Source: a virus
Reading direction: 5' to 3' (one strand)
DNA length: 64,000 nt
IMG/VR virus record: IMGVR_UViG_3300027969_000047
The notes beneath the pieces were generated by a model. The model searched no databases, had not been told where the DNA came from, and saw only the letters and a list, made by a program, of their open reading frames with translations. How positions within the stretch are numbered: position 1 is the stretch's first letter; every line of letters begins with the position of its first letter. Below are positions 4,210 to 26,963 of the stretch, piece by piece. Position numbers and translations under genes: made by a program.

Positions 4210-4478
4210 CTCCTCAGGGCTTTGTTAATTGGTGAATCGGGGTCTCTCGCATTCTCAGGATTAGTCAATCTCTTTTTCATGCCACCCATTCTACGACAAA
4301 ACGCTAGACGGCGGTCTGCTCTTTTACCTTTTGGGTCTTTTTCAGTCACAGCAGTTTTTAATTTTGAACCAGGATTTTCACTACGATATGCGTTGACTGC
4401 TTTCTGAGAAAGCCCATCAGTCTTATCTTTACGATTGACATCCTGCCAATCTTCTGTAAATGTTTTAAATGATTTCAT
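4197..4478 (-). CDS. Conserved-type T4-like hypothetical basic protein with capsid-targeting-like N-terminus
   Basis: 93 aa; MKSFKTFTE leader; ends FCRRMGG...ALRRWNC. Confidence 0.7.
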   Translation of the reverse strand: MKSFKTFTEDWQDVNRKDKTDGLSQKAVNAYRSENPGSKLKTAVTEKDPKGKRADRRLAFCRRMGGMKKRLTNPENARDPDSPINKALRRWNC

Positions 4479-6934
4479 TTTGGTATCAACTCAGGATATT
4501 TTTTATACATGTCTTCTTTTGATAACTCATGCATATCAGCCCACACCTTAGCTTCTTTTTTTGTTTTTGTGGTTCTGATATGATTACCTTTTTCATCATG
4601 CACATTATATTCAACATCAGCAGTTGTTCTACCTCTAAAACTTTCTTTCTTAGTTATAGAGGCTTTCTTTTCTTCTGTCACCCTACCCAATGAATCGTAT
4701 TTACTACTAGCAGTTCCTAATGGTGGCGTGATTAATTCTTTACCTTCAAACTCATCGTCAATATTGATTGGAGAGTTATGAAGTTTTTTCTTTATTTCTT
4801 TGAGCGAGAGGGTGCCGGCTTTGCGATTACTTTTTTCGCCGCTGGCTTCTTTGGCGTAGATTGTTGTTTCTTCGCTGGCGCTTTCTTCGGCGTGGTTGGC
4901 TTCGCAACCACAGTGTTCTCTAAGTTCACGGGTAGTTCTTGGACCGGTGCTGGTTCGACTGCTGGTGTCTGTACTACTTCCGGCTCTGGTTTCTTCTTGA
5001 ATAAGGCGGCTATTGCTTTGAACATGTGGATTCTCCTCTTTTATTTTTTGTGTCAACTTCTCTTTGATTGATGATAGCATCAATGGCTCTGCACTGCTAC
5101 CATAAATTTCAATTTGTTTACCAAGCATCAACATTTTGGTTGATGAGTTATCTGAAAATTCAAAACTCTCACCAATAAGTTCACTGAAACTTGTATCGAT
5201 ATCTTCTTTTCTGATACCTTTTTCTGCCGCTTTCAATTTATTGAGCGTAGATGATTTCTTTGCTTTGTCTAAACGACCTTTGAGTTCTGGACTCATTTCA
5301 GGTTTTGTAATATCTGCAACTGATTTTAATTTTGGTGCCGTAGGTTGTTTAGCATGTGCCGGTTTAGATGCACCTAAAGAACCTGACTGAGTTGGTATAT
5401 TTGGTGATGGTGTTGGTTGATTTTTATCGATAGCAACCAATTCATCATTAACTGAATGATGTGTTATTTGCCTATCTTTACCATAACGACCAAATCCATA
5501 GTAAGTCAGACCAAGTTTAGATGCTTGCTCACCTGCACCAGAACCTTTACGAACAGGTTTAGCTTCAAGATTTTTATCGACCGTCTTATCTTTACGAACA
5601 AGTTCAGTTGAAATCCATGACTTAGCAATATCTGATTTAGGTGCGGCCGATGTAAATTTTCTTACATTCTTGAAGATACCATCAAGTTCTTGTGTTTTCT
5701 TATGAACAACTTCGGGTGATGCATTTCGTAAATCTTCTGAGTTATCATAGTGAAAGAAATTGTTTTGACCAAATAGTTTTTGTAATTCGGGTCTTGCTTT
5801 CTGTGCAGACATCCATTTATCTTTACGAATGTCTTCTGGTACTTCACGACCACCTCTTTGACCTCTTTCAATATTTCTTTGACGAGACACTTCATCAGCA
5901 GTATCAACAAAAACCATTTGAGTCTCATAACCCAAATCTTCAAGTTCTTTTTTGATACGCTTTGTCTTTTCAATATCGTCAGCAGTACCATTGATGATTA
6001 GACCATTGCGACCATTGAGTGCAAGGCGCTGTCTTAATTCTGTAACTGACTTAGCAGTACCACGAATCTCATCTCTCTGTGCTTTTTCTGAATCAGGCAT
6101 CTTTTTATTCAGACGCTTTTTGTCCATCAAGAATTCAAAAGCATTGTCAGAATTGATTTCAGTTAGACCATTCCCAGCAAGAGTTTTACCCATCACAAAA
6201 TCTTTGCCTGAACCAGGACCACCTGCTAAGAAAATTGCTTTGAAGATACCTGAATCGTGAACACCTTCAACAAGAAGATTCTCAAAAAGAATGTCCATTG
6301 TAATCTCAACAGATTCTTTCACTTCACCGATGTACTTGTCTAAAAGACTCTTCACTTTCTCAGGACTTTTTGCATGTGGATATAATTGACTTATCATTTG
6401 TCTCTTTGCCTTATCATCCGCTTTGGCATACATCTCTCTGACTTGTGAACCTGAGTAGACTTCTTTGCCATTTAATTGGAATACTTTTTTCTTTGTAACG
6501 AATATGTATCCATGCCCAGTCTTCTCATCAAAAGGCTTGCATTCTTTAATTGATTTGTATGGTTGATAGTATGCCTTTGAACCATCTTTCTTTGTGTAGT
6601 TCACAGGGTCTCGCTCACTACGAACCAAGATAAGAATATCTTTCTTTGGGTTGTACTGCGCTAGAATTTCTTTGGGATTGACAGGTTGAATAACCTGCAC
6701 GAATTTATCTGTAACGCCTGCTTGTTGCGCTAAGAATTGTTTGTCTTTGAATGGAATAGGTCTTTGCTTTGTGTCGTTACTTGAGGCGACATAGAAATCA
6801 GCACTTGGGAAAGCACTTTTCGCTTGTTCGTAACTGCTCATATGACCTGCATGGAAAGGCTGAAAGCCTCCACCATACACGACAATGACCTTGGATTGAC
6901 TTTTGGCTTCCGCCAAAAACTTGCTAAATTTCAT
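4475..6934 (-). CDS. HxGH cytidylyltransferase/NMNAT-like domain fused to P-loop (zeta-toxin/PNK-like) kinase, with capsid-targeting-like leader
   Basis: GGGFQPFHAGH and YSGSQVRE nucleotidyltransferase motifs; Walker A GGPGSGKD; MKFSKFLAE start; late box upstream. Confidence 0.8.
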   Translation of the reverse strand: MKFSKFLAEAKSQSKVIVVYGGGFQPFHAGHMSSYEQAKSAFPSADFYVASSNDTKQRPIPFKDKQFLAQQAGVTDKFVQVIQPVNPKEILAQYNPKKDILILVRSERDPVNYTKKDGSKAYYQPYKSIKECKPFDEKTGHGYIFVTKKKVFQLNGKEVYSGSQVREMYAKADDKAKRQMISQLYPHAKSPEKVKSLLDKYIGEVKESVEITMDILFENLLVEGVHDSGIFKAIFLAGGPGSGKDFVMGKTLAGNGLTEINSDNAFEFLMDKKRLNKKMPDSEKAQRDEIRGTAKSVTELRQRLALNGRNGLIINGTADDIEKTKRIKKELEDLGYETQMVFVDTADEVSRQRNIERGQRGGREVPEDIRKDKWMSAQKARPELQKLFGQNNFFHYDNSEDLRNASPEVVHKKTQELDGIFKNVRKFTSAAPKSDIAKSWISTELVRKDKTVDKNLEAKPVRKGSGAGEQASKLGLTYYGFGRYGKDRQITHHSVNDELVAIDKNQPTPSPNIPTQSGSLGASKPAHAKQPTAPKLKSVADITKPEMSPELKGRLDKAKKSSTLNKLKAAEKGIRKEDIDTSFSELIGESFEFSDNSSTKMLMLGKQIEIYGSSAEPLMLSSIKEKLTQKIKEENPHVQSNSRLIQEETRAGSSTDTSSRTSTGPRTTRELREHCGCEANHAEESASEETTIYAKEASGEKSNRKAGTLSLKEIKKKLHNSPINIDDEFEGKELITPPLGTASSKYDSLGRVTEEKKASITKKESFRGRTTADVEYNVHDEKGNHIRTTKTKKEAKVWADMHELSKEDMYKKYPELIPK
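4792..5025 (-). CDS. Nested alternate-frame Pro/Ala/Lys-rich 77-aa protein
   Basis: AGAGGAG 7 nt before the ATG; protein-like composition (PKKAPAKK, PKKPAAKK); lies entirely inside 4475..6934 in another frame. Confidence 0.6.
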   Translation of the reverse strand: MFKAIAALFKKKPEPEVVQTPAVEPAPVQELPVNLENTVVAKPTTPKKAPAKKQQSTPKKPAAKKVIAKPAPSRSKK

Positions 6935-6968: not shown

Positions 6969-6976
6969 TATTTATA
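6969..6976 (-). promoter_or_regulatory. T4-type late promoter TATAAATA
   Basis: Exact box upstream of the 819-aa gene; gp55 is encoded in the window. Confidence 0.8.
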
Positions 6977-26404: not shown

Positions 26405-26679
26405 TCTTTATAATCAATCTTGTTAATAAAACTCAACTTCTTTTCTTCAGACCAAGAAGCCATGTACTGATTGTCCTTATCGAACAATGTCAGGTATTCT
26501 TCTTTTGAAATTTCACGAGAACTAAAAATCGATTCATCGATATGTTCTTGTGAAAATTCTTTGAAAGAATCATTACCTCTTTCCATAATGACTTCATCAT
26601 GTGAATGAGACTCTTCTTTAGCCTCAACAACATAACGCATACGAAACATCGAAACAGTCTCAACAATATATAACGGCAT
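26401..26679 (-). CDS. Hypothetical protein
   Basis: 92 aa, coupled overlaps. Confidence 0.65.
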   Translation of the reverse strand: MPLYIVETVSMFRMRYVVEAKEESHSHDEVIMERGNDSFKEFSQEHIDESIFSSREISKEEYLTLFDKDNQYMASWSEEKKLSFINKIDYKE

Positions 26680-26963
26680 TATAACATCCTTATTAAACCA
26701 ACAAAATCAATACTCACTAACAGAAGGTAGTTGGCTAACATACCAAATGATTTTCTAGAATAAGCAGCCCAAGCATACAAGGCACAACCAGCAATCCACA
26801 CAGGATATAAAGCAAGAAGAGGAGGGGTTGGGACTGTGAGTGCCATGGTAATTGAACAGCCAATACTAATAGCCCAAGCCAACAACTCAATAGCAAACCG
26901 TATGCGATTAGAAGAGTAATCATCTTTTATCCATTGCAAAGTAGGGCGAAACAATTCTATCAT
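26679..26963 (-). CDS. Small membrane protein (about 3 TM)
   Basis: 94 aa with three hydrophobic stretches. Confidence 0.7.
   Translation of the reverse strand: MIELFRPTLQWIKDDYSSNRIRFAIELLAWAISIGCSITMALTVPTPPLLALYPVWIAGCALYAWAAYSRKSFGMLANYLLLVSIDFVGLIRML

Follow-up and report, generated by a model that had tools for sequence, protein, structure and literature searches.

Genes that lie wholly inside other genes, and out of frame with them, are textbook matter in tiny phages and in the Rz/Rz1 pair of phage lambda. In large T4-like phages, to our knowledge, they go unnoticed by gene callers and hardly ever enter an annotation. A stretch of viral DNA 64,000 nucleotides long, IMG/VR record IMGVR_UViG_3300027969_000047 (the window in the following), raises the question of whether a phage of this kind carries one: an open reading frame (ORF) of 819 codons on the minus strand (4475-6934; the host gene in the following) entirely encloses a 77-codon ORF on the same strand, shifted by +1. 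An initial annotation of the window had described this arrangement and proposed the small ORF as a real nested gene with a strong ribosome-binding site of its own. In this study, both frames were compared across related loci, and the product of the small ORF was compared with proteins encoded elsewhere. The arrangement is in all probability true dual coding, an ancient, conserved gene within a gene in which both frames are kept by selection.

Start site and composition of the nested frame

The nested frame opens with an ATG at 5023-5025 and ends with a TAA at 4792-4794 on the minus strand, and its 77-residue product runs MFKAIAALFKKK...SRSKK. The minus-strand sequence 5' of the ATG is AAGAGGAGAATCCAC, in which a Shine-Dalgarno (SD) core, GAGGAG, written in Lys/Glu-Glu codons of the host frame, lies 7 nt from the start, in agreement with the ribosome-binding site claimed initially. 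The overlap bases double as host residues ~637-714, a linker rich in Ser, Thr, Gly, Arg and Glu. It had also been remarked that this segment is richer in G and C than its flanks and that its host frame looks like off-frame sequence yet stays open. Both remarks hold: the GC content is 0.48-0.54 in 4780-5019 and 0.33-0.40 in the flanks, and the host frame is of low complexity and free of stops across the overlap.

The openness of the nested frame is uninformative by itself. When the host protein was held fixed and its synonymous codons were shuffled, the +1 frame stayed open in 2-35% of trials, depending on the lineage; such openness is likely by chance because +1 codons begin with the second base of a host codon, and a segment rich in Ser, Thr, Gly, Glu and Lys has few T there. 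The openness is thus largely forced by the amino-acid composition of the host protein, and it was dropped as evidence for a gene. The same host gene even contains another +1 ORF, of 109 codons (5662-5991, minus strand), inside its kinase domain, that is clearly no gene. Both observations speak for the view that the small ORF is an untranslated by-product of the composition of the host linker, with constraints on the host protein or its mRNA explaining the conservation. Evidence independent of openness was therefore sought in the conservation of the ATG and SD, the pattern of substitution, the purge of third-position T and the existence of free-standing homologues, and in view of this evidence the by-product view is very unlikely.

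Conservation across related loci

A set of 103 related loci, 36-97% identical at the protein level near the overlap, was obtained from scans of IMG/VR and of metagenome contigs with the long protein as the query, and the nested ORF was sought in them with a hidden Markov model (HMM) of the nested proteins. The ORF was found in 93 of the 103. Of the other ten contigs, four stop short of the region, five resemble the host gene in the N-terminal domain only and one (L110) contains an ORF placed in the same way but too divergent for the profile. All of the 93 loci have an ATG at the profile start, an uninterrupted host frame and an SD-like motif (GGAG, GAGG or AGGA) 4-18 nt 5' of the ATG, and the third frame over the same bases averages 6.2 stops. 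Stops in the nested frame or loss of the ribosome-binding site in homologous loci, which the initial annotation had named as grounds for giving up the gene, occur in no locus examined. The nested ORF exists in 73 distinct DNA versions, 51-105 codons long; only two of the ~90 nested copies had previously been called as proteins.

The start signals are kept while the host residues over them change. The nested ATG is spelled across the host residue pairs Asn-Asp, His-Val, His-Asp and Asp-Val, and the SD is kept as xAG-GAG across Lys-Glu, Glu-Glu and Gln-Glu, so that it is the bases that are conserved and not the host residues. This counts against the by-product view.

The constancy of the start site also bears on a second alternative, in which the +1 frame is reached by programmed ribosomal frameshifting, with the internal SD as stimulator, so that the host N-terminus would be fused to the small protein. 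Shifting of the prfB type builds on an SD-like sequence within an ORF and a +1 offset between frames, and both are present here. However, the in-frame ATG present in 93 of 93 loci is not needed for a shift, and stops in the +1 frame lie 1-5 codons before it (for example, a TAG one codon upstream in L013). Furthermore, the loci share no slippery or hungry codon, the SD and the ATG are 3-9 nt apart, as suits initiation, and the free-standing homologues described below start at the same Met as the nested protein. Frameshifting, rejected because of the conserved ATG together with the upstream +1 stops, is hardly credible.

Two side observations concern variation within the nested gene. Between the loci L004 and L005, 4 of 2,052 bases differ in the remainder of the host gene, as against 39 of 258 aligned bases, with additional indels, in the Pro/Val/Glu-rich middle of the nested gene (overlap region of this pair, about 5922-6188); this contrast suggests that recombination or repeat slippage has acted locally, within the overlap alone. 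The nested proteins of L013, L052, L069, L078, L098, L103 and others carry a conserved (K/S)HPLDGP(I/T)R after the N-terminal helix, in place of the PYKVE of the free-standing family.

Selection on the two frames

Dual coding is classically recognized by suppressed synonymous change in one frame and a ratio of nonsynonymous to synonymous change (dN/dS) below 1 in the other. Ratios were estimated by the NG86 method for 26 phylogenetically independent pairs of loci, which were picked on the identity of the upstream 600 nt to avoid bias. In the overlap, dN/dS is 0.54 for the nested frame [bootstrap 95% confidence interval (CI) 0.42-0.68] and 0.65 for the host frame (CI 0.50-0.88); in the upstream 600 nt it is 1.30 for the +1 frame, which serves as a control (CI 1.15-1.49), and 0.15 for the host frame (CI 0.13-0.18), and these values are to be read relative to the controls and not as absolute, since NG86 estimates are biased where frames overlap. 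Relative to its upstream part, the host frame has in the overlap a synonymous rate reduced to 0.54-fold (CI 0.36-0.79) and a nonsynonymous rate 2.3 times as high. The same shift can be seen in a single pair: between L005 and L008, differences at the three host codon positions number 33/18/175 in the rest of the gene and 25/8/13 inside the overlap, where the third-position excess is gone. In this per-frame comparison of relatives, a check recommended initially, both frames show purifying selection.

The 109-codon +1 ORF in the kinase domain provides a negative control within the same gene. It has no SD, its position shifts between lineages and its dN/dS is 1.55, as against 0.54 for the nested ORF; it was rejected as a gene and is a compositional artefact. 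The contrast with this control ORF speaks against the by-product view.

Whether the long frame is itself maintained across the overlap was addressed by simulation, in which the nested protein was held fixed and its codons were drawn at the frequencies found in the non-overlapping part of the host gene (5,000 trials, ten lineages). In each of the ten lineages, the host frame was free of stops in at most 0.08% of the trials. The natural sequences achieve this by avoiding T at nested third positions: T occupies 4 of these 77 positions in the window and a mean fraction of 0.085 over the 73 versions, as against ~0.36 elsewhere in the host gene. The purge keeps the host frame open because a nested third-position T before AA, AG or GA creates a host-frame stop. 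The six free-standing homologues for which DNA is available have third-position T fractions of 0.25-0.35 and 8-15 stops in the host-like frame, and the purge is therefore specific to enclosed copies. The long frame is really kept open across the overlap.

These results weigh on a third alternative, in which only the small gene matters and the passage of the long ORF over it is neutral read-through, open by chance, with an unselected 819-residue product. The low complexity of the host overlap and its raised nonsynonymous rate would fit such a view, and the Cys pairs that recur in the host frame can be explained as T-G junctions before nested Val and Ala codons. The host frame of one locus, L027, does have a stop. 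From the SD on, this locus matches L008 and L046 apart from a single C>A change in the overlap, which leaves the nested gene intact and gives the host frame a TAA; 5' of the SD, the first 690 codons of the host gene have given way to a HigB-like gene. An autonomous small gene would fit L027, but this locus consists of one contig of 1 kb, which may be a true recombinant or a chimeric assembly. Against the read-through view, no interruption of the host frame was seen in any of the 93 loci, an outcome that chance would give in <0.1% of the trials for each lineage, only nested copies are purged of third-position T, and the host segment 3' of the overlap (KITLxEIR...ESIDKGIEPG...) is conserved in frame. 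We regard a neutral long frame as very improbable. Separately, the HigB/RelE-like toxin ORF of L027 (2-262; ...QYRICFTW...IEITDYH) was observed to end exactly at the nested SD.

Free-standing relatives

The initial annotation had suggested a search for free-standing homologues of the 77-residue product, and this search was positive. A word-indexed search with the nested alignment returned two nested copies that had been called as genes and P0003, a protein of 84 residues encoded in another context. When 1.84 billion representatives were searched with an HMM, 41 proteins reached E<=0.001, mostly of 64-104 residues and mostly aligned end to end, and this profile search yielded 38 further representatives of 53-127 residues. 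At least 77 further loci of the free-standing family are present in IMG/VR, some of them on contigs of 215-300 kb. The family consensus (alignment A6) reads M-[LIF]-x-F-x-K-K-L-F-G-x-K, then E-[VA]-P-Y-K-V-E, followed by a middle of Pro, Val, Ala and Glu and a tail of Lys, Pro and Ala.

The small gene stands alone between unrelated genes in all seven contexts checked, and it has an SD of its own in all six free-standing contexts with DNA. The exact sequence TATAAATA, the box of a T4-type late promoter, lies 20-25 nt 5' of the free-standing genes in L029 and L030, and a clear terminator hairpin is present at that of L029.

The link between the embedded and free-standing proteins was evaluated with profiles. 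Alignment with hhalign of a profile of nested proteins only and a profile of free-standing proteins only gave a probability of 96.8% and an E of 2.2e-10 over the first 29 columns, and an HMM built from free-standing proteins only had a single significant match among the six-frame ORFs of the window, namely the nested ORF (E 1.3e-5). The window protein fits the N-terminal motif of the family, M-[LIF]-x-[FLA]-[ILF]-K-x-[LF]-F, and its 77 residues fall within the usual family range of 60-105. The last 30 residues carry, on average, a net charge of +9.7 in nested and +10.6 in free-standing proteins. The E[VA]PYKVE motif is present in the nested copies of L011 and L012, with VEVPYKVE kept in L011. 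The small protein can thus be assigned to an unnamed family of phage proteins of 60-130 residues that is free-standing elsewhere, a homology that an untranslated by-product of linker composition would not have.

The family has so far escaped naming. The 77-residue protein has no match in Pfam or PHROGs, the free-standing family gave only two weak single-member matches in PHROGs, the ESM Atlas returned only clusters of `hypothetical protein' from viruses and a tblastn search of 50,697 GenBank phages found no match.

Relative age of the frames and a proposed history

The initial annotation had left it open whether the small gene is the ancestral frame, overprinted by the tail of the long protein, or the reverse. 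Overprinting is upheld, and the direction is tilted by the distribution of the two genes: the small gene is probably the older and the host linker the overprinting frame, with birth inside the linker followed by escape as the less favored course. By the usual criterion of distribution, the small gene would be older because its family is more widely distributed than the host gene. No full homologue of the host gene was found on nine IMG/VR contigs (69-300 kb, fragments) with the free-standing gene, in a search whose positive control worked; one of the nine (G011) has a single host module as a separate gene for a 240-residue protein. Furthermore, the host-frame reading of the overlap was found in this clade only, where it is of low complexity. 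No second, free-standing copy was found in two genome fragments carrying the nested copy. The same order is favored by modules of the long protein that are separate genes elsewhere, by the downstream gene joined to the long ORF in the window lineage and by the lack of a small gene next to the 94-residue membrane protein described below. Loss of a stop codon and extension over a downstream gene has been proposed as an origin of embedded spanins (PMC6139136).

A side observation concerns the kinship of the phages involved. A predicted membrane protein of 94 residues in the window (26679-26963, minus strand) is 72% identical to the product of a gene in L035 (3406-3693) and 49% identical to one in L122 (790-1089). 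The L035 gene sits tail-to-tail with a free-standing small gene, which is its neighbor in L122 too, and no small gene adjoins 26679-26963 in the window. From this similarity, the phages with a free-standing copy are fairly close relatives.

The proposed history and expression of the locus are as follows. The small gene, a free-standing late gene in other phages, would have become enclosed by the long ORF in this clade through stop loss or fusion as the modular protein grew, and the removal of T from nested third positions would then have kept the host frame clear of TAA, TAG and TGA. The TATAAATA box 5' of the host gene (Table 1) is the presumed source of mRNA for both proteins, and this late mRNA would be read in two ways. 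Ribosomes starting at 6934 would make the 819-residue modular enzyme protein, reading 4792-5025 as a low-complexity linker, while others would bind the internal GAGGAG and start at the ATG at 5025 in the +1 frame, making the 77-residue protein with an amphipathic N-terminal helix, a disordered tail and a net charge of +12.

Besides the forced openness of the nested frame, the bias of the NG86 ratios and the uncertain nature of the L027 contig, several points weigh against dual coding as described here. The E[VA]PYKVE motif, in which P, Y, K and E are invariant or nearly so in alignment A6, is absent from the window protein, which has PEPEVVQTPAVEP instead. Outside the first ~30 residues, the similarity between nested and free-standing proteins is compositional. 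We infer the translation of both products from sequence, and the functions considered below are drawn from sequence features only. Finally, the suggested direction of evolution rests on distribution across incomplete contigs.

Predicted product and function

An AlphaFold2 model computed from a 35-sequence alignment has one helix, at residues 2-9, and no other secondary structure (pLDDT 50-80, mean 68). The hydrophobic moment of residues 2-12 of the window protein is 0.54 and the family mean is 0.64-0.67, compared with ~0.2 elsewhere in the proteins, in keeping with the amphipathic N-terminal helix noted initially. The net charge is +12 in the window protein and +11 to +12 overall, nearly all of it in the last 30 residues, and the nested protein consists of 19% Lys, 14% Pro and 8% Ala. 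The resemblance of the tail to the PAKK repeats of histone H1 and of AlgP-type proteins is compositional only, with no Pfam or PHROG match. The predicted product is therefore described as an N-terminal amphipathic helix resembling the membrane-targeting sequence of MinD, followed by a disordered tail of Pro, Lys, Ala and Val.

The membrane-targeting sequence of Escherichia coli MinD is KGFLKRLFGG (PMC5471200), with a hydrophobic moment of 0.55. Like it, the helix of the present family is short, cationic and amphipathic, its moment is equal or higher and members such as P0004 read ...GFLKKLFGG...; however, the MinD helix is C-terminal on an ATPase, whereas the helix here is N-terminal on a predicted disordered polycation.

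Tentatively, and with less than even confidence, the protein might be anchored peripherally at the membrane and, late in infection, bind DNA or another polyanion through its polycationic part. Alternatively, it may be a disruptin-like lysis helper or a DNA-associated virion protein. The disruptin of phage phiKT, gp28, is a small, membrane-active, cationic lysis peptide (bioRxiv 10.1101/515445), and the nested product is likewise a small and strongly cationic phage protein. However, gp28 is predicted to be mostly helical and similar to LL-37, whereas the nested protein is predicted to be helical only at residues 2-9; there is no homology between them and no lysis-cassette context for the nested gene. 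A more specific idea, which we consider improbable, is that the nested protein is a late membrane-to-polyanion tether or disruptin-like factor whose output is mechanically coupled to the translation of a capsid-targeted enzyme cargo; the coupling is suggested by the position of the nested start site inside the host gene. If the tether reading were true, a pre-existing gene would have been swallowed by a neighboring ORF and re-coded by the purge of third-position T, and the embedded and free-standing members would measure the cost of overprinting.

Comparison with known nested genes

In layout, the closest likeness is to lambda Rz/Rz1, in which a longer late gene completely contains, in its +1 frame and on the same strand, the gene for a small Pro-rich late protein with its own start (PMC5295617, PMC6139136), and in which the enclosing segment is likewise the more permissive one. 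However, Rz1, a lipoprotein of the outer membrane, has a signal sequence and a lipobox Cys and works together with Rz, whereas no Cys occurs in 35 aligned nested proteins, which at the N-terminus have no signal peptide but an amphipathic helix with charged residues after it; a spanin of the Rz1 type (o-spanin) was ruled out because Cys and a lipobox are both missing. The enclosing gene also differs, being here that of an enzyme-like modular protein. A survey of spanins found no family mixing embedded with separated members (PMC6139136), whereas the present family has both.

Gene 30.3' within gene 30.3 of T4 (NC_000866, NP_049817.1) is a second likeness, as an ORF of ~75 residues annotated as an internal translation in a different frame. 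It has no sequence resemblance to the nested protein and lies in an early-region gene of unknown function, and it was set aside as a relative, serving as a precedent for the layout only. We know of no comparative evidence for it.

The free-standing members of alignment A6 share with the window copy their length class, the N-terminal amphipathic motif, the acidic, Pro- and Val-containing middle, the Lys/Pro/Ala tail and the late-promoter context; they differ in that their genes stand alone with normal third positions and a near-invariant PYKVE, whereas the window copy is embedded, purged of third-position T and without PYKVE. This contrast reads out the cost of enclosure, with third-position T falling from ~0.3 to 0.085, PYKVE lost and a dN/dS of 0.54, and it argues that the newcomer is the segment of the long protein and not the small gene. 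With ~70 distinct versions, a negative control in the same gene and one family both embedded and free-standing, the case is unusually clean, and it extends the gene content known for abundant freshwater phages by an unannotated, widespread and strongly cationic late protein.

The host gene and its phage

The window is that of a freshwater T4-like myovirus. It carries genes for a T4-like gp23 capsid protein, gp20 portal, gp18 sheath, gp17 terminase, gp43 family B polymerase and a DnaB-like helicase, and its DNA is present in sequencing runs of freshwater and lake metagenomes. Contigs from lake metatranscriptomes match parts of the host gene at 88-99% identity, with the overlap not usefully covered. 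The features of the locus are collected in Table 1.

Table 1. Features of the nested gene and of the enclosing host gene in the window
Feature	Position	Strand	Description or basis
Nested gene, 77 codons + TAA	4792-5025	minus	ORF list; +1 frame of host ORF
SD core GAGGAG	5033-5038	minus	Sequence; 7 nt spacing to nested ATG
Host late gene, 819 residues	4475-6934	minus	HxGH nucleotidyltransferase-like domain, zeta-toxin/AAA_33-like P-loop kinase, modular tail
Cytidylyltransferase/NMNAT-like HxGH domain, host residues 19-108	6611-6880	minus	Pfam CTP_transf_like PF01467, E 1.5e-7
Zeta-toxin-like/AAA_33 P-loop kinase domain, host residues 232-380	5795-6241	minus	Pfam, PHROGs
T4-type late promoter box TATAAATA	6969-6976	minus	Pattern search; ~35 nt 5' of host ATG
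Last 62 host residues	4478-4663	minus	Counterpart is a separate gene 3' of the host gene in relative L013 (6439-6681)

The kinase domain of the host protein matches Zeta_toxin (PF06414; residues 232-380, E 9.7e-12), AAA_33 (PF13671; residues 234-375, E 3.1e-9) and phrog_12810 (E 2.5e-29), and the protein past residue 380 has no family match in Pfam or PHROGs. The Pelagibacter phage HTVC008M and the Methylophilales phage Melnitz have, of the host gene, only the kinase domain, as a separate gene for ~220 residues, and no match to the small-protein profile.

In the window lineage, the host ORF has gained a further module at its C-terminus by fusion. The deletion responsible, present in the window, L001 and L002, took the usual host C-terminus (GDET..SIG..KEDELKK..FK) and the leader of the downstream gene, the product of which begins MKSFKSFIFEE in L013, and thereby joined both ORFs.

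In G011 (L201:883-2227), which has a free-standing small gene, a DUF6321-like protein ending ...RRRWNC is encoded along with the separate 240-residue protein, the latter matching one middle module of the host protein (NIGMMEL..KF...AWKLVQD..GVKL). Since modules of the long protein are separate genes elsewhere, the long protein is a mosaic.

Paired Cys motifs recur in the host-frame overlap of many lineages (CGCE, CDCGCG, CSCDE and CNCGCG; EHCGCE at ~4880-4900 in the window). They coincide with nested-frame runs of Val and Ala, where a third-position T before G is harmless, and are probably a by-product.

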